Positions 20,994 to 28,431 of a DNA stretch of 64,000 nucleotides are shown in pieces. The position numbers and the translations under genes were made by a program. This DNA is from Syntrophobacterales bacterium (GTDB taxonomy: Bacteria; Desulfobacterota; Syntrophia; Syntrophales; UBA2210), in contig JAHDRK010000013.1 of assembly GCA_018433345.1 (NCBI GenBank), positions 7,482 to 71,481 of the forward strand. The letters are read 5' to 3'. Position 1 is the stretch's first letter; every line of letters begins with the position of its first letter. Below the pieces are notes generated by a model, which was given only the letters and a program-made list of their open reading frames with translations, had not been told where the DNA came from and ran no database searches.

Positions 20994-21491
20994 ATGCCTG
21001 AAAAAATTAAACCGGGAGACACCGTCAGCGTTCATTACACCGGAAAGTATGAGGACGGCGGCGTTTTTGATTCATCGGAAGGCCGTGAGCCCATCAAGTT
21101 CACCGTCGGCGGGAAACAGCTCATCCGCGGGTTCGAAGAAGCAGTCGTAGGAATGAGCGAGGGAGAGAAAAAGGAGATCACAATAACACCGGAAAACGGT
21201 TACGGAGAATCCATCCCGGAACTCGTGTTCGAAATCCCCCGAAACCACGTACCGGATAATATTCAGCTGGAGGAGGGGCTCCAACTCACCCTCACGGACC
21301 AGGAGGGCAATCAACTTCCCGCCGTGGTGAAGAAGGTGACGGACGAGACGGTCACCCTGGACGCAAACCATCCGCTGGCGGGCAAAAAGCTGCACTTCGA
21401 CATCGAGGTGGTGGAAACGGGACTGACTCCCGACTCCTGTTGTGATCCCACCGGGTGCGGCAGCGGCGGAGGCGGTTGCTGCGGCTGCTGA
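20994..21491 (+). CDS. slyD: FKBP-type peptidyl-prolyl isomerase, SlyD-like, with a Cys/Gly-rich C-terminal tail
   Basis: VSVHYTGKYEDGGVFDSS..., LDANHPLAGKKLHFDIEVVE (FKBP plus IF-domain pattern). Tail is CCDPTGCGSGGGGCCGC. SD AAAGGAG. Confidence 0.85.
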   Translation: MPEKIKPGDTVSVHYTGKYEDGGVFDSSEGREPIKFTVGGKQLIRGFEEAVVGMSEGEKKEITITPENGYGESIPELVFEIPRNHVPDNIQLEEGLQLTLTDQEGNQLPAVVKKVTDETVTLDANHPLAGKKLHFDIEVVETGLTPDSCCDPTGCGSGGGGCCGC

Positions 21492-21586: not shown

Positions 21587-22243
21587 CTATATTCCCAGGT
21601 CCTGGTTTACGAGCACGACCTTGATCCTTCCCTTGGGAAATGATTTTTCCGTAATCGTCCAGCTATTGCAAATACGCTGCGTTCCCGAACATTCCTCGCA
21701 AACGGCGGTCTTCGCACAGGGCGTCTTGAACGACAGACGCATGGCGTTCACCGGGGCGGCGTAATCTTTGATTCTCACCATAGCCTCACCCAGATCCGGC
21801 ACGATCTTGTTGCGACCGGCCACGATGATCACCCATCGAGGTCCGAAAGTAATCGCCCCCACGCGGTTCCCTATCATGTCAAGATTGACCAGGAGGCCGG
21901 TTTCCGTCACCGCGTTGGTACCAGTTACAAAAAGATCGGCCAGGAGCGCCTGCCTTCGGCGTTCGAGCATCTCTTCCCGGGGAACATCCCGGTCGAGCGT
22001 GTCATAGACCGTAAATCCAAACCTCCCGTCCTTCAACGATTCGTAAAGCCCCGCCTCCTGCACAGTCATGGATCCGCCCCAGGCCACACTTTTTGCATTG
22101 AGGGAGGGGATGATTTTTTCAGTTGCGAGTTCCCGCGCCTCGTCGGCGGTTTCGACCACGAAGGCTTCAAAATTGTTCCTTTCCAGTGCCTTTTTAACCC
22201 CTTCAAGTTTCAGTTTCCAAAAGGATCGTTTTACATCGGTCAT
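21587..22243 (-). CDS. LUD-domain (lactate-utilisation LutC/YkgG-like, DUF162) protein
   Basis: 218 aa with N-terminal KKALERNNFEAFVVETADEARE and C-terminal Cys cluster CAKTAVCEECSGTQRIC, typical of this family. SD AAGGAGGAG. Confidence 0.75.
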   Translation of the reverse strand: MTDVKRSFWKLKLEGVKKALERNNFEAFVVETADEARELATEKIIPSLNAKSVAWGGSMTVQEAGLYESLKDGRFGFTVYDTLDRDVPREEMLERRRQALLADLFVTGTNAVTETGLLVNLDMIGNRVGAITFGPRWVIIVAGRNKIVPDLGEAMVRIKDYAAPVNAMRLSFKTPCAKTAVCEECSGTQRICNSWTITEKSFPKGRIKVVLVNQDLGI

Positions 22244-22297: not shown

Positions 22298-23182
22298 TTA
22301 TTGTAACGTAATATTTTTCGACTGCCACGCAAGACGGAACTTTATGGAATGAAGAAGTCGCTTTGAAAGAAGAACAAAAAGGTACGCCGCCCCCGCCACA
22401 ATGATCGTGGTGGCTCCGGCGGGGAGGTCGGCGGCGTAACTCACCGCCAGCCCGGTGGTGGTAAAGAGGGCGGTAAAAAAAACGGACAGCATCATGAGCC
22501 TCGACAGCCGACCGGTGAAGTTTCCCGCCACCGCCGCGGGGATGGTCAAAAGGGCGATGACCATGACGATTCCCACCACCATTACGAGCAACACCACACC
22601 CAGGGCCGTGAGACAGAGAAGAAGGAGAAAGTAAAACTCCACCTTTACGCCCCGGAGACGTGCGAATTCCTCGTCGAAGCAGACTGCCAGTAAACGACGG
22701 TAAAAGAGCACAACGACCACCACTACAACGAGGTCGAGGGCGGCGATGATCCGGAGATCTCTCGGCGATACCATGAGGATGTTCCCGAAGAGATAGCTCA
22801 TCAGGTCCTCACCGTAGCCTGGAGTCCGGGATATGAACAGCACGCCCAGGGCCATACCCAGCGCCCACACGGCCCCGATGACCGTGTCCTCCCGTTCACG
22901 GGCATAGAGGCTCACAAGACCGATTACGACGGCCGCTATCAAGGCCGAAATCACCGCTCCCAAGAGCGGTGTGAGCCATTCCCACTGGTAGACCACCCGG
23001 CAGTACCGTGCAGCACCGAGACCCGCAAGAACAGAGTGAGCAATTCCCCCCGCCAGGTAGGTAATCCGGCGGGTGACGACGTAACCGCCTATGACGCCGC
23101 AGGCGACACTTGCCAGCAGCCCCGTGGCCAAGGCATATTGGAGAAAGTGGTACTTTGCCAGATCGCCTATGAATTCAGACAT
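22298..23182 (-). CDS. znuB: Metal (Zn/Mn-type) ABC transporter permease
   Basis: ABC-3 family polytopic permease. Start at ATG 23182 overlaps the znuC stop by 8 nt. The track start 23239 lies inside znuC. Confidence 0.85.
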   Translation of the reverse strand: MSEFIGDLAKYHFLQYALATGLLASVACGVIGGYVVTRRITYLAGGIAHSVLAGLGAARYCRVVYQWEWLTPLLGAVISALIAAVVIGLVSLYAREREDTVIGAVWALGMALGVLFISRTPGYGEDLMSYLFGNILMVSPRDLRIIAALDLVVVVVVVLFYRRLLAVCFDEEFARLRGVKVEFYFLLLLCLTALGVVLLVMVVGIVMVIALLTIPAAVAGNFTGRLSRLMMLSVFFTALFTTTGLAVSYAADLPAGATTIIVAGAAYLFVLLSKRLLHSIKFRLAWQSKNITLQ

Positions 23183-23951
23183 GGCATTCTCCCCCACCGC
23201 TCCTTTCGTCATGGCGGACCATGCGCACGTCCGATCCATAGATTTCGCTGATGATCTCTCCCGTTATTTCGCTGGTGGGATGCACGACGACGCGCCGGTT
23301 TACGCAGACAACGGTGCGCACGTACCGCGACACGAAGCCGATGTCGTGACTCACAACGACAACGGTCATGCGATGGTTCAACCAGAGCAAAAGTTCAAAG
23401 AGTTCTCCCTCGTGGGCGGGATCGACGTTCGACGTGGGTTCATCGAGGATCAAAAGTTCCGGATCGGTCGCCAGTGCCCTGGCTATCAGCACCCGTTGCC
23501 TCTGCCCGCCGGAAAGTCCCGCGAAAGGACGGTCGCGAAGGTCTGCAATGTCCAGTTTGCGAAGGACGTCATCAACCCGGGCGTCCCTTTCGACGCGGCG
23601 CTGGAAAGCGAAGAGACCTCCCTTGCCAAGGAAACCCATGGAAACGACGTCTGTCACATTCACGGGGAACATCATGTCGAGCTGGGAGTGCTGGGGCATA
23701 TAACCCACGCGGTGACGCGCAGAGGCAGGGGGACACCCGAACAGCCGGATCTTTCCCCGGAGGGGTTCGAGCAGGCCGAGAACCAGCTTTACGAGCGTCG
23801 TCTTCCCTCCCCCGTTGGGTCCCACGATCGAGACAAAGTCGCCCCGCTCCACGGAAAGGTTCACCCCTTCCAGGACCGGTTCACCGTTGTAGGAAAAGGT
23901 GACGTTCTCCATCGTGACAACGGGATCTTCTTTCCTCTCTCTCTGGATCAT
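23175..23951 (-). CDS. znuC: Metal ABC transporter ATP-binding protein
   Basis: Walker A GPNGGGKTT, signature LSGGQRQR, Walker B LLILDEPT. Confidence 0.9.
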   Translation of the reverse strand: MIQRERKEDPVVTMENVTFSYNGEPVLEGVNLSVERGDFVSIVGPNGGGKTTLVKLVLGLLEPLRGKIRLFGCPPASARHRVGYMPQHSQLDMMFPVNVTDVVSMGFLGKGGLFAFQRRVERDARVDDVLRKLDIADLRDRPFAGLSGGQRQRVLIARALATDPELLILDEPTSNVDPAHEGELFELLLWLNHRMTVVVVSHDIGFVSRYVRTVVCVNRRVVVHPTSEITGEIISEIYGSDVRMVRHDERSGGGECHV

Positions 23952-24892
23952 GCACCTTCCCGCCTTTCCCCGCCTCCGACCGCCAAGGCCTTACTTATCG
24001 CCTCCCCTATTCGTTCCAGGTTCAGCAGGTAGTCTCTCGCCAGCGGATCGAGCGGAACCACCGCGCCGCCTATCTCACGGGCCACTGACTCGGCCAGGCG
24101 AGGCGAAAACTGCGGCTGGACGAAGATGACCCGCACGCCTTCCTCTTTCGCCTTCTCGATTATCGAGGCGAGTTGCCGGGGCGAAGGTTCTTTGCCGCTG
24201 ACCTCCACGGACTCCTGGTGAAGCCCGTAAGAATCGGCGAAATACCCGAAGGCCGGATGAAAGGCGTAGAAAGTCTTCCCTTTCAGGGGCGCGAGAATTT
24301 CAGTCAATTCCCGATCGATTCTTTCCAGATCCTCGAGAAAGGAGACCAGGTTGGCCCGGTAGAGGTTCTCCCTTTCCGGGTCCAACTCGACCAGGGCCTG
24401 GCAGATGGTCCGCGCCTGTATCATGACCCGCTTCGGATCAAGCCATACATGGGGATCCGCCGTCTCCCCGGACGAGGATTGTCCATGGCGGTGATCGTCG
24501 TCGCCGGTCTCGCGGTCGCGATGAAACGGCGCTTCGAAATATCTCAGGGGTACCCCCAGGCGGGTGTCCACGATCCTGAGGTTCCTCATGGTTCCCCCGA
24601 TCTTTTCAAGAATACGGTCTTCAAAGGGCAATCCGATCCGGAAAAAAATGTTCGCCTCTCCCAGCGCGGCCATCTGCCTCGGCGTGGGCTCGTAAGTATG
24701 GGGCGACATGCCCGACCCCACGAGAACCCCCACGTCCACGTGAGGACCTCCGATCCTCTCGACAAAATAGGCCTGGGGAAGAATGCTGACAAAGACCTTC
24801 GGCCGCCCCGCCATGGCCTCAACGCCAAAAAGAGCGAAAGAAACACATAAAAAGACAACCACGCCGTGAATAACATTCCATGCCCTGTTCAT
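23948..24892 (-). CDS. znuA: Metal ABC transporter substrate-binding protein, ZnuA-like
   Basis: Cluster-9-type SBP with signal peptide (VVVFLCVSFALFGVEAMA) and an acidic/His-rich loop HRDRETGDDDHRHGQSSSGETADPH, characteristic of Zn-specific ZnuA. Start at ATG 24892. A 4-nt overlap with znuC. Confidence 0.85.
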   Translation of the reverse strand: MNRAWNVIHGVVVFLCVSFALFGVEAMAGRPKVFVSILPQAYFVERIGGPHVDVGVLVGSGMSPHTYEPTPRQMAALGEANIFFRIGLPFEDRILEKIGGTMRNLRIVDTRLGVPLRYFEAPFHRDRETGDDDHRHGQSSSGETADPHVWLDPKRVMIQARTICQALVELDPERENLYRANLVSFLEDLERIDRELTEILAPLKGKTFYAFHPAFGYFADSYGLHQESVEVSGKEPSPRQLASIIEKAKEEGVRVIFVQPQFSPRLAESVAREIGGAVVPLDPLARDYLLNLERIGEAISKALAVGGGERREGA

Positions 24893-24914
24893 GCCTCGCA
24901 GCCACTCCCGACGT

Positions 24915-25172
24915 TCAACTCTCCCTGAAACAGACAAGGTAATTCTCTTTGCACTCCTCGCAGTTGCTCACCGAGTGATGGGTGGAAAAGTCCTGCCAGT
25001 GCCTGATCTGGGAGGGCGTCAATATGCCCCTTCCATTGCAGAGGGGACAGGCCGTGCCCAGGGCCTCCATGATGGCCCTGCGGATGAATTCGGAACGGTT
25101 GGGTATATCCTTCAATACCTCCATCATCGCCTCATCCACCTTGAAGCTTATCACCTCTTCTTTTTTCTTCAT
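24915..25172 (-). CDS. Small ribbon-helix-helix (CopG/NikR-type) DNA-binding protein fused to a Cys/His-rich zinc-finger-like tail
   Basis: 85 aa. RHH pattern ISFKVDEAMMEVLKDIPNRSEFIRRAIMEAL, then CPLCNGRG (CxxCxGxG), HH, CEEC. First gene of the znu cluster. Confidence 0.8.
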   Translation of the reverse strand: MKKKEEVISFKVDEAMMEVLKDIPNRSEFIRRAIMEALGTACPLCNGRGILTPSQIRHWQDFSTHHSVSNCEECKENYLVCFRES

Positions 25173-25198
25173 GGGAACGCTCCCGCCGTTTTCGAATT

Positions 25199-25226
25199 AA
25201 GTAGTACTTTGTATTACCATAGTCAA
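25199..25226 (-). promoter_or_regulatory. Candidate promoter plus palindromic operator of the RHH-znuACB operon
   Basis: Minus strand: TTGACT (25226-25221), 17-nt spacer, TACTTA. The perfect 11-bp palindrome AAGTA-C-TACTT (25199-25209) overlaps the -10 region. The -10 match is weak. Confidence 0.35.
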
Positions 25227-25388
25227 GTCGCTTTTTTCAAATGGAATTGCCGCTGAAACGGCGCAGAAGAATCGTCAAAACAAAAAACTACGATGTTTAC
25301 ACCGTCGGGGGCGATCGGATCGCCGTCGGCTGAAGACTCGTTGTCTTCTTCGAGGAAATTTTTGCTTTTAGCACCGGACAATTGCCGG

Positions 25389-26138
25389 TCAGGGCAGCCG
25401 GTTGATTGCGGAGGCGACGCAGGCGGCGCCGAAACCGTTGTCGATATTGACGACGGCCACGCCTCCCGCGCAACTGTTGAGCATGGCAAGCAGGGCCGCC
25501 AGCCCCCCGAAGCTCGCCCCGTAACCCACACTGGTGGGGACTGCGATGACCGGCTTGTCCACGAGCCCCCCCACGACGCTTGCCAGTGCACCCTCCATAC
25601 CGGCCACGACAATGACGACCCGGGCACCCCGGACCAGGTCTATCACGTCGAAAAGCCGGTGGATGCCGGCCACCCCAACGTCTATGATCCGCTCCACCCG
25701 GTTTCCCAGGATTTCCGCGGAAACCGCCGCCTCCTCCGCCACGGGCAGGTCGGAGGTGCCGGCGGCGACCACGGCGATGTAGCCCTCGGGGATATTAAGC
25801 GCCACCTTCCTGACGGTGATCGTCCGGGCGGTTTCGTTGTATTCCGCCCGGGGGCAGATTTCCGACACGGCGGCAAAGACCTCCGCAGTCGCGCGGGTGG
25901 CGAGGATGTTGGTGTCCCGAGTGAGCATGTATTCCACGATTTCGCGGACCTGGGCGGCCGTCTTACCTTGGCAGAATATGACCTCCGGACGCCCCTGCCG
26001 CTCGGGACGCTGATTGTCGATCCGGGCGAACCCCAGGTTCTTGCAGGAGGCCTCACGGATGAGTTCCAGGGCGGCCTCCATACCGAGAGCCCCCTCTTTG
26101 AAGGCGGCGAGGATATTCTTCAGTTCATCGTCTTTCAT
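25389..26138 (-). CDS. larB: Nickel-pincer cofactor biosynthesis protein LarB (PurE-like NaAD carboxylase/hydrolase)
   Basis: [57 protein letters not shown]. Start at ATG 26138 with SD GGAAGGAGA. The track start 26231 overlaps larE. Confidence 0.88.
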
Positions 26139-26199
26139 GGATCCCGTCTCCTTCCGGCGTCTCGAGGGATGTTCCGATCCCTCGGCATTCCGGCGCCCC

Positions 26200-26985
26200 T
26201 CAATCCATGCTGCCGCTGCGGTACCCTTCAAGGTCGAGTGCCACGTAGCGGAAACCCATTTGTTTCAATCGCTTCGCCACCTTTCCCATCCGTTCTTCGC
26301 TCATGAAAAGACGCCTCTGCCCCGGCGCCACCTCTATGCGGGCCATGACACCGTCGCTCCTGACCCTCACCTGCTCCATGCCTTCCTCGATGAGGTATTC
26401 TTCAGCCATTTCAATGCGCGTAAGTGTCTCCAGCGTCACCTCGAACCCATGGGGCAGCCTGGTCATCAGGCAGGAATCAGCCGGCGTTATCCAGCTTTCT
26501 CTTCCCCGCTCACGCAGGAGTTCGGTTATTTCGCCCCGGGTAAACCCCATTTCGCGGAGCGGGCTCAGCACACCCCGTTCTTTAAGCGCGCTCATTCCCG
26601 GTCGAAGCGCCTTCCTGTCGTCGGCCTGTGTCCCGTCCAGCAGGTGCCTGATCTTGCGCGATTCAGCTTCACGACCCATCAGTTCGAACATGGCATCTTT
26701 GCAGAGATAGCATCTGTTCCGGGGGTTATATCGGATTTCCTCGCCGATCGGCATGTCTATACTGCGATGTTCCACGCCCAGGCACGCGATGATATCGTTG
26801 GCGCGCCGAATGTCACGCTTCAGGGTATAGGGCGCGAACACGGTGAAGGCAGTTACCCCGCCGCCGAGGGCCTCACGGGCGATGTCGAGCAGGAAGGCGC
26901 TGTCCTGACCGCCTGAAAAGGCGACGGCGCACGGTTCCAGCCCCCGGAGCCGTTCCAACAGGGCTTCCAGTTTATTATCCTTCAT
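26200..26985 (-). CDS. larE: Nickel-pincer cofactor sulfur transferase LarE (PP-loop ATPase)
   Basis: PP-loop AFSGGQDS, CxxC (C92, C95) and DSCLMTR (C172). Overlaps the larC stop by 11 nt. Confidence 0.88.
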
Positions 26986-28207
26986 GTGCCTCCTCTTTCG
27001 ATGCCACCCTTGTACGCTCCACGGCGTCGTACACCTCTTTCAGGGGTACGCCCCTCTCCAGGGCTATGCGGCGGCAATCTTCGTACTCCGGCTTCCATGT
27101 GATCCTGCCGGGACCACGAAGAGCCCTCTTCACCCGAACCTCCCCCAGGTCTGTCTGTACCGTGACCAAGTCCCGATCGAGCGTCGTCCTTCCGAGGCGC
27201 TGTTTCCGCACTCCCAGGGTGGCGGTTTCCTGCAGGCTTATCTCTTCCGCCTCAGCCTGCCGCGAAGGTTCGCAAACCGCCGAAAGCACCACGGCCGGCC
27301 TCGATTTTTTCATGATAACGGGCGTAAGGTACACGTCTATCGCACCGGCGTCAAAAAGCCGGTCCATTACGTGCTCGAGCATTTCCGGGCTCATGTCGTC
27401 GATGTTGCATTCCACGAGGCAGATATCATTATCGCCGTCTGTCAATCGTCCGGGCTCGGCCTCGCCGAGGATCACCCTGAGCACATTGGGTATCTCAATG
27501 TCTCTCGTCCCCACGCCGTAACCGATCTTTAAAGGCCGAAAAGCCGCTTCGGAGGTAAAGCAGTCCACGGTGGAAGCCAGGACGGCAGCCCCCGTGGGCG
27601 TTGTCAATTCGAAGGGGGCCCTCCCCTTCGTGACCGGTATTCCTCGCAGGATTTCCAGCGTGGCAGGCGCAGGAACGGGAAGGGTTCCGTGGGCACATGT
27701 GACGAATCCTCCTCCAAGCTCAACGGGAGAAGACATGACGCGATCCACCTCGAGGATCTCCAGACAGACGGCGGCGCCCACGATATCGATAATGGAATCA
27801 ACGGCGCCCACCTCGTGGAAATGCACTTCTTCGACGTCGGCGCCGTGGATCTTTCCTTCGGCGCGGGCTATCCTGGAAAATATATCGATGCTCGTTTTTT
27901 TAACCCCATCGGAAAGTCGGGAGGCCTGTATAAGCGCCTTGATATCGGTGAAAGACCGGCCGTGAAAATCGCCTTTGTGTTGATATGCTCCTTTTCGCCG
28001 GTCTGGTTCGTCGTTATGTATCACGTCGATCTTCGTTCCGGTGACCCCTCTCATCTCTCGACATGACCGCCTCAGTTCATATCCGTATAGGTCGAGCTTT
28101 TTAAGGGACTCGACCAGCCGATCAAAATCGACGCCCACATCCACCAGCGCGCCCAGGTTCATGTCTCCGCTTATTCCCGCGAAGCAATCGTAGTAAAGTA
28201 TTTTCAT
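26975..28207 (-). CDS. larC: Nickel insertion protein LarC (DUF111)
   Basis: MKILYYDCFAGISGDMNLGALVDVG is the canonical LarC N-terminus. Start at ATG 28207 with SD GAGGTGG. The track start 28342 adds 45 unsupported residues. Confidence 0.9.
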   Translation of the reverse strand: MKILYYDCFAGISGDMNLGALVDVGVDFDRLVESLKKLDLYGYELRRSCREMRGVTGTKIDVIHNDEPDRRKGAYQHKGDFHGRSFTDIKALIQASRLSDGVKKTSIDIFSRIARAEGKIHGADVEEVHFHEVGAVDSIIDIVGAAVCLEILEVDRVMSSPVELGGGFVTCAHGTLPVPAPATLEILRGIPVTKGRAPFELTTPTGAAVLASTVDCFTSEAAFRPLKIGYGVGTRDIEIPNVLRVILGEAEPGRLTDGDNDICLVECNIDDMSPEMLEHVMDRLFDAGAIDVYLTPVIMKKSRPAVVLSAVCEPSRQAEAEEISLQETATLGVRKQRLGRTTLDRDLVTVQTDLGEVRVKRALRGPGRITWKPEYEDCRRIALERGVPLKEVYDAVERTRVASKEEAHEG

Positions 28208-28431
28208 CGAGCCACCTCGGTTCACCTCGCAAGGCGACGACCCCGCCCCGGCAGCAAGCACTGTATCCGTCAACCGTCGTGAATGCAACGATTTTTCACC
28301 GCCGAAACAGGGCGGCGTAAAACCGGCCTCCGGGAACATCAATCATGGTTGCATTTTTTGCCGTTCAATGAAATAGAACCTTGTCGAACCACATAAACGC
28401 TTGGCAAGCAAAAAAAAACGGGAGGTTTCAT

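Follow-up and report, generated by a model that had tools for sequence, protein, structure and literature searches.

Introduction

Which protein governs zinc uptake in a bacterium in which no Zur can be recognised? The question is raised by a stretch of 64,000 nucleotides from a Syntrophobacterales bacterium (assembly GCA_018433345.1, contig JAHDRK010000013.1, positions 7,482 to 71,481 of the forward strand), hereafter the window, in which the genes of an ATP-binding cassette (ABC) transporter, znuA, znuC and znuB, are preceded by a gene coding for a protein of only 85 residues, MKKKEEVISFKVDEAMMEVLKDIPNRSEFIRRAIMEALGTACPLCNGRGILTPSQIRHWQDFSTHHSVSNCEECKENYLVCFRES. A first-pass annotation had described this product as a ribbon-helix-helix (RHH) protein with a Cys/His tail, heading the operon as a candidate metal sensor other than Zur. 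The open reading frame (ORF) and the protein sequence were confirmed as given (ATG start, stop codon included; Table 1), and the proposal of a non-Zur sensor is supported by a shared operator, by linkage to znu genes, by the lack of a recognisable Zur and by the mutual exclusion of RHH and Fur-family genes beside znuA. We propose that the protein is probably a small transcriptional repressor of an undescribed family, corepressed by zinc, which represses its own gene together with znuA-znuC-znuB and so does the job of Zur. The order of the genes, the conservation of the family, the operator together with its occurrence wherever the gene is linked to znu, the exclusivity with Fur-family genes and the zinc type of ZnuA were all computed, and are presented below.

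With regard to known regulators, a 2024 survey in Chemical Reviews of how bacteria sense metals names Zur (Fur family) and AdcR/ZitR (MarR family) as repressors of zinc uptake; NikR appears there as a sensor of nickel only, and no other RHH metal sensor is named. Our full-text literature searches found no paper describing an RHH zinc regulator. A mention of the 'CopG family' in a Paracoccus zinc study was rejected as an unrelated table entry.

Apparent in-place replacement of Zur at znuA

The window's genome is 93% complete, and no Zur is recognisable in it, which answers a question that the first-pass annotation had left standing. Its single Fur-family gene lies on another contig (L081:821-1860, contig C74), and scores best as PerR (E-value 1e-24, versus 8e-4 for Zur); rubrerythrin is the very next gene after it. 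The slot beside znuA was compared among 61 genomes of the same order, which were searched with the family profile, Pfam FUR and ZnuA before the coordinates were set side by side. An RHH gene adjoins znuA in 10 genomes, always directly upstream and on the same strand, and a Fur-family gene does so in 17 (14 directly upstream on the same strand, one divergent, two downstream in the operon); both occur together in none, and eight genomes have neither. No Fur-family gene was found anywhere in six of the 10 RHH-carrier genomes. Furthermore, all 10 znuA loci of the RHH type carry the operator described below, eight with at most one mismatch and two with two mismatches beside a TTGACT hexamer, and it is missing from the 20 other znuA loci of the order. 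We take this apparent in-place replacement, judged from gene positions, as the best reason to think that the protein fills the role of Zur.

The linkage to zinc genes extends well beyond this order. Neighbourhoods were compared in 80 loci, out of at least 508 that carry the family, by tblastn with the ZnuA, ZnuC, ZnuB, LarB, LarE, LarC and LUD-domain proteins of the window; all counts of context and operator given per locus refer to these 80. The znu genes directly adjoin the RHH gene in 68, usually in the order RHH-znuA-znuC-znuB, the departures being a divergent znuA in two spirochaete loci and an RHH-znuC-znuB arrangement in three loci. The association of homologues with metal transporters, on which the first-pass annotation had made its proposal depend, is thus found, and the transporters are those of zinc uptake. 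Among the 12 loci without adjoining znu genes, two stand at a contig edge, seven carry a gene for a membrane protein of about 205 residues, and three have unrelated neighbours. In the window itself, 22 nt separate the stop codon of the RHH gene from the likely ATG of znuA, and the znuC and znuB reading frames overlap.

A conserved operator over the promoter

Lining up the upstream regions of the family brought out the motif GTAWTAC-N3-GTAWTAC, which in the window spans 45 to 29 nt before the ATG of the RHH gene. With at most one mismatch, 72 of the 80 loci carry it ahead of the RHH gene, 27 times exactly. The scan treated the 200 nt before each gene as the promoter region and the remaining 743,384 bases as flanks, and the flanks contain no unrelated match at this threshold; of the three matches that fall there, two lie just upstream of true RHH-gene starts and are counted among the 72, and one lies inside a znu cluster. 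In the window's own genome of 2.13 Mb, the site at 25201-25217 is the sole match with at most one mismatch. By such counts, the operator is conserved among the relatives to an extent far beyond chance. Because its half-sites are palindromic and their centres lie 10 bp apart, it would suit two twofold-symmetric RHH dimers bound to one face of the helix. The perfect palindrome AAGTA-C-TACTT, which the first-pass annotation had seen as overlapping the putative -10 element of the operon promoter, is located as described, but makes up only half of this 17-bp operator, and no convincing -10 was called there.

A TTGAC box was found within 45 nt upstream of the operator in 64 of 73 related promoters that have one. 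Counted from the box, the operator starts after 3-6 nt in 31 promoters, after 12-15 nt in 11 and after 21-33 nt in 20, the window belonging to the first class with 3 nt. At these distances, the operator covers either the spacer and the -10 element or the start site, and is not a fixed promoter element. Promoters of the 3-6-nt class often end their second half-site in A or T, so that it resembles a -10 hexamer.

Does the operator define a wider regulon? In 20 other carrier genomes, matches were mostly local, and the counts of other one-mismatch sites were about those of a reversed-pattern control; with so few non-local matches, the regulator appears to be essentially local. The exception is genome G066 (which holds L043), whose operon reads RHH-znuC-znuB and lacks znuA. 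Its znuA is unlinked (L119:499-1527; PF01297, E-value 7e-79) and preceded by TTGACT-N13-GTATTAC-TAT-GTATTAC-TAT-GTATTAC, that is, by three exact half-sites at 10-bp spacing. The operator follows the zinc genes, not the regulator. A gene for a DUF1980 protein lies just upstream of this unlinked znuA, on the same strand.

An unnamed family with a conserved Cys/His tail

A word-indexed search returned 68 clusters of homologues (E-values from 1e-51 to 1e-10, mostly 83-105 residues), and a HMMER search of representatives at 50% identity gave 286 matches at E-values up to 1e-3, 90 of them up to 1e-10. The figure of at least 508 genomic loci comes from a scan of one genome per species. According to record titles, the carriers belong to about 12 phylum-level lineages, among them Desulfobacterota-type bacteria, Spirochaetota, Planctomycetota, Acidobacteriota, Zixibacteria, Bacillota, Chloroflexota, Verrucomicrobiota, Eisenbacteria and Glassbacteria, with Sumerlaeota and Cloacimonadota among the search clusters. 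Database names are generic, namely, 'CopG family transcriptional regulator', 'YgiT-type zinc finger protein' or 'hypothetical'. This is a large unnamed family, for which no paper, no Pfam or NCBIfam model and no solved structure was found.

The N-terminal part was read as an RHH fold of the CopG/NikR type in the first pass, and Pfam RHH_1 indeed matches residues 8-38 above its cut-off (23.5 versus 20.5 bits). A Pfam scan at E-values up to 0.1 found no NikR_C domain, in line with the earlier statement that the tail is unrelated to the ACT-like domain of NikR, and no Fur (PF01475) or winged-helix domain was detected by Pfam either; NCBIfam has no model for the protein. The tail consists of a knuckle C42-P-L-C45-x-G-x-G, a helix (53-62) bearing H58, and a beta-hairpin (66-70/77-81) bearing H66, C71-x-x-C74 and C81. 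It scores below the cut-offs of both DnaJ_CXXCXGXG (16.9 versus 32.7 bits) and Anti-TRAP (13.3 versus 32 bits), and it holds a single CxxCxGxG unit, the second Cys pair being a plain CxxC in the hairpin.

Conservation, computed over 261 full-length relatives, is highest in two regions. Residues F10, K11, N25, S27, F29, I30, R31 and A33 are kept in 95-100%, accompanied by R26 (84%) and E28 (79%), and this near-invariance of the DNA-reading segment (F10, K11, N25-R31) fits the invariant operator. No clear pattern of co-variation emerged between strand residues and operator variants, such as GTAACAC in Acidobacteriota. In the knuckle, C42, C45, G47 and G49 are invariant, P43 is kept in 99% and L44 in 87%. 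The further ligands follow with C71 at 92%, H58 and C74 at 89%, C81 at 85% and H66 at 83%, and all seven Cys/His are retained in 196 of the 261 relatives. All eight residues counted as potential metal ligands in the first pass are present in the protein of 85 residues; one of them, H65, is kept in just 18% and drops out of the conserved set.

With regard to structure, an AlphaFold2 monomer built on an alignment of 62 sequences reached a mean predicted local distance difference test (pLDDT) score of 87.7. In this model, residues 1-13 are extended and followed by helices 14-20 and 26-40, a succession which fits the RHH fold; the C42-x-x-C45 knuckle comes next, then helix 53-62 with H58, and finally the hairpin, with C71-x-x-C74 in its turn and H66 and C81 at its open end. 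In this arrangement, the two knuckles would together make a Cys4 ribbon site, and H58, H66 and C81 would make a second site, proposed because of the topology and the conservation of these residues. A Foldseek comparison of the monomer with the PDB gave no match at E-values up to 0.001, hence no structural precedent for the whole protein; the RHH monomer is too small for such a match. The family profile, run against PDB sequences, weakly matched anti-TRAP (3LCZ/2BX9, E-value 7e-4) over residues 42-68, which comprise the knuckle and the helix. The N-terminal 41 residues yielded only spurious summed matches to designed alpha-repeat proteins, which were discarded, and a profile comparison with CopG, for which the CopG sequence was not taken from a database, was not significant.

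Two family members deserve mention for their architecture or divergence. P0069, a natural protein of 185 residues from the representative library, contains the complete RHH and Cys/His unit twice in tandem and is therefore a possible single-chain dimer that could serve structural work; folded without an alignment, it reached a pLDDT of 35.8, which is unusable as a dimer model. Genome G056 holds a second, diverged copy of the gene (L112:691-987, contig C37), in which NRSESIRE and CPPC replace NRSEFIR and CPLC; this copy is without an operator, and an unrelated ORF of 339 residues comes after it.

Proposed mechanism and its alternatives

From these features we infer a model that covers DNA binding, zinc binding and its stoichiometry, the ligands that belong to each site, and the sign of the response to zinc. 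The N-terminal RHH domains would pair into dimers, each of which would insert a two-stranded beta-ribbon into the major groove and occupy one 7-bp GTAWTAC half-site, so that two half-sites one helical turn apart would place two dimers on one face of the helix. In the window, these dimers would lie over the bases that directly follow the -35 box, and the bound protein would block RNA polymerase, repressing its own gene and znuA-znuC-znuB. The tail probably holds one Zn(II) at the Cys4 ribbon site (C42, C45, C71, C74), and a second, exchangeable Zn(II) may be held by H58, H66, C81 and one more ligand. Zinc would act as a corepressor by ordering the tail and promoting cooperative contacts between dimers. 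With sufficient zinc, the operator would be occupied; under scarcity, the exchangeable ion would be lost, the contacts or the order of the tail would weaken, and the operon would be expressed. The protein would thereby replace Zur functionally.

On a broader level, we lean towards the view that this is a new family of zinc metalloregulators and the second metal-sensing RHH family after NikR. It would be characterised by a new Cys5His2 domain, in which a Cys4 site is structural and a His2Cys site exchangeable, and by cooperative binding to a near-universal operator; it would have displaced Zur at znu in many, mostly uncultured, lineages and, in some genomes, would control the membrane proteins of about 205 residues, which would then be candidate zinc importers.

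Could the tail be a mere scaffold? The protein would then be a metal-independent RHH autorepressor, in which a structural zinc ribbon serves folding or oligomerisation, and any response to zinc would come from elsewhere, or not exist. Cys4 ribbons are commonly structural, the tail bears a weak likeness to the zinc motif that has a structural role in anti-TRAP and DnaJ, and no regulon past the local operon appeared in the 20 genomes. Such a reading nevertheless leaves unexplained the fixed linkage to zinc importers across phyla, the mutual exclusion of RHH and Fur-family genes beside znuA, and the conservation of H58, H66 and C81 (83-89%) beyond the Cys4 set; moreover, the six carrier genomes without any Fur-family protein would have none to provide zinc control. 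We therefore regard it as unlikely.

The next question is whether the metal is zinc at all, since nickel, cobalt, manganese or iron could be sensed if the transporter were not a zinc importer. The doubt was first raised by the genes upstream. On the minus strand at 25389-28342, larB (AIR carboxylase-like) lies directly upstream of the znu promoter, with ORFs read as larE and larC in the first pass alongside. The upstream position of larCEB, noted in the first pass, was confirmed and is on the same strand, but the doubt on the metal that had been attached to it did not hold: tblastn found no lar homologue (and no LUD homologue either) in the 80 related loci, and terminator-like hairpins stand between larB and the znu promoter. 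The nickel/lar link was rejected on these two grounds and on the type of ZnuA. The latter belongs to cluster A-I, whose binding proteins also include manganese and iron carriers, and its NCBIfam scores stay below every equivalog cut-off, with the Deinococcus MntC model almost equal to AztC. However, its best solved relative is the zinc-specific ZnuA of Synechocystis (1PQ4, E-value 5e-68), against 1e-20 or worse for the manganese and iron binders PsaA, MntC and MtsA, and it keeps aligned the three His of the PH, DPH and FHP motifs together with a His/Asp-rich loop (DDDHRHG...). By these alignments, the ZnuA encoded in the window is of the zinc type. A further point is that, where related genomes have another gene in the slot, it belongs to the Fur family and the transporter next to it is of the same kind. 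Since ZnuA is zinc-type and the relatives show no lar linkage, nickel or another metal is unlikely as the ligand, and we give little chance to the reading in which the transporter is not a zinc importer.

A thiol switch is less probable still. Here, oxidation of the cysteines would free zinc and lift repression, so that the operon would answer oxidative or electrophile stress, and not the supply of zinc. Zinc-thiolate centres do act as redox switches in RsrA and Hsp33, and the tail has five conserved cysteines. The regulated genes, however, are zinc importers rather than genes of redox defence, many carriers are labelled as groups generally held to be anaerobic (Syntrophales, Desulfobacterales, Spirochaetes), and the gene that stands beside znuA in place of the RHH gene is Zur-like and of the Fur family. 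We equally hold it very improbable that the protein is an activator, or binds DNA in the apo form only and is released by zinc. The sign of the metal effect is itself part of the proposal, and a poor -10, as here, may be a mark of promoters that need an activator. However, 64 of 73 promoters have the operator starting 0-33 nt behind a good -35 box, at positions typical of a repressor (spacer, -10, start site), and an importer switched on by an apo-protein sitting over its own core promoter would be mechanistically awkward.

Zinc-dependent repression by the small protein has its own difficulties, which weigh against it as follows. Concerning the protein, the RHH_1 score exceeds its cut-off by just 3 bits, an E-value of 0.01 or better is reached in only 26 of 62 relatives, and neither sequence nor fold searches of the PDB retrieved a solved RHH structure. 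The closeness of H58, H66 and C81 is predicted from topology and conservation; seven ligands fall short of two complete tetrahedral sites; and the Cys4 ribbon may be purely structural, which would allow a metal-independent autoregulator. Concerning the genes, a consensus scan called no promoter in 24850-25450. Three of the 80 loci have unrelated neighbours and no operator (L042 and L070 with a GAF-HD protein, L066 with a PPDK-like protein), and several related genomes have a znuA that neither regulator adjoins, with no obvious alternative regulator upstream of these znuA loci. Finally, all 80 loci come from metagenome-assembled genomes.

Other features of the window and related loci

The coordinates of the features discussed are collected in Table 1.

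Table 1. Features of the znu locus in the window, and membrane protein genes next to the RHH gene in related loci.
Feature	Position	Strand	Remarks
RHH and Cys/His-tail gene, candidate zinc-responsive repressor	24915-25172	minus	ORF and homologues
Predicted RHH DNA-binding domain, residues 7-40	25053-25154	minus	strand VISFKVD, helix 14-20, helix 26-40 opening with NRSEFIR
Cys5His2 tail, residues 41-85	24918-25052	minus	conservation, AlphaFold2 secondary structure, weak anti-TRAP profile match
Ribosome-binding site GGGAG	25180-25184	minus	7 nt ahead of the ATG; read from the sequence
Operator GTAATAC-AAA-GTACTAC	25201-25217	unassigned	two 7-bp palindromic half-sites GTAWTAC, centres 10 bp apart; one mismatch to consensus
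Palindrome AAGTA-C-TACTT	25199-25209	unassigned	second operator half-site and flanking bases
-35-like hexamer TTGACT	25221-25226	minus	3 nt upstream of the operator; read from the sequence
Two terminator-like hairpins	25249-25262, 25290-25305	minus	between larB and the znu promoter; 2 found versus 0.6 expected in shuffles
znuA, periplasmic zinc-binding protein	23948-24892	minus	likely ATG 24892; longest ORF 23948-24937 from TTG at 24937; Pfam ZnuA, E-value 3e-72
znuC, ABC ATPase	23175-23951	minus	Pfam ABC_tran, E-value 7e-33; overlaps the end of znuA by 4 nt; best NCBIfam AztA, below cut-off
znuB, ABC-3 permease	22298-23239	minus	Pfam ABC-3, E-value 1e-67; best NCBIfam AztB, below cut-off; start codon uncertain
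Membrane protein of about 205 residues (related loci)	L022:6400-7017, L024:2333-2965, L040:556-1152, L047:717-1334, L058:6287-6925, L074:6504-7466, L080:6402-6998

In the seven related loci listed last, the RHH gene and the operator are followed, without znuACB, by a gene for a polytopic membrane protein with conserved His/Cys motifs. These motifs are HAPF, HPxHxxLSA, GYTGSxGIATLSD, PHxGHVLLSTWA and IPCCVSDI, and the L074 version has an extra His-rich N-terminus. The protein matches no Pfam or NCBIfam model and was not found in the window's own genome. Its family comprises at least 7,934 clusters at 90% identity, recorded as 'hypothetical proteins', some of them labelled Elusimicrobia, Omnitrophica or Proteobacteria. 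We consider it a candidate new family of zinc importers.

On the other side of the operon, a LUD-domain gene (21587-22243) comes after znuB on the minus strand. Convergent with it, a gene on the plus strand (20994-21491) codes for an FKBP-type peptidyl-prolyl isomerase (Pfam FKBP_C, E-value 1e-25) with a Cys/Gly-rich tail, CCDPTGCGSGGGGCCGC, reminiscent of the metal-binding tails of the SlyD type.

Significance and comparison with known systems

If the proposed function is true, the protein would represent a third, structurally unrelated regulator of zinc uptake beside Zur and AdcR/ZitR, and would add a family to the metal sensors. It would account for the control of zinc uptake where a genome has no Fur-family protein, and would allow better annotation of genes now called 'CopG family regulator' or 'YgiT-type zinc finger'. 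The conserved operator would predict zinc-controlled genes in uncultured bacteria, including those of the candidate new transporter family. In other respects, a sensor of 85 residues acting on an operator of 17 bp would be convenient for studies of allostery and for zinc biosensors.

How does it compare with what is known? The closest likeness is to NikR, which also joins an N-terminal RHH domain to a C-terminal metal-binding domain; as in NikR, the metal would be expected to act as corepressor of an ABC importer of the same metal. NikR, however, has about 133 residues and carries the ACT-like NikR_C tetramerisation domain, whereas the present protein has a 45-residue Cys5His2 module made of knuckle, helix and hairpin. 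The targets also differ, NikR acting on the nickel importer nikABCDE and the present protein, from its genomic neighbours, presumably on a zinc importer. The same holds for the operators: the E. coli NikR site reads GTATGA-N16-TCATAC, while the half-sites of GTAWTAC-N3-GTAWTAC lie one helical turn apart. With Zur, the protein shares the slot directly upstream of znuA and presumably the same job, and in Zur, too, a Cys4 site is structural and a His/Cys site regulatory, according to the 2024 review. It differs from Zur by being about half its size and by its unrelated fold and different operator. Because NikR_C and the Fur domain were both looked for and found absent, the protein is a member of neither family.

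AdcR and ZitR, according to the same review, repress zinc uptake without belonging to the Fur family and bind DNA only when loaded with zinc, and they offer a precedent for recruiting another DNA-binding scaffold to this task; they have the winged-helix fold of MarR, have so far been described only in Streptococcus and Lactococcus, and show no sequence relationship with the present family. The tail recalls anti-TRAP (RtpA) and the Cys-rich domain of DnaJ by its CxxCxGxG zinc knuckle followed by a short helix; in those proteins, the CxxCxGxG units are paired, whereas a single one is present here, and neither anti-TRAP nor DnaJ binds DNA. As for Arc, MetJ and CopG, the likeness lies in the match to Pfam RHH_1 and in the repeated half-sites at 10-bp spacing, which suggest cooperative binding of several dimers. 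Tandem MetJ boxes are bound cooperatively in this way by several dimers. Arc, MetJ and CopG are nevertheless devoid of a metal-binding tail. Taken together, the protein would be a repressor with a metal as corepressor, in which a DNA-binding fold already known is combined with a new sensory domain and a new metal.

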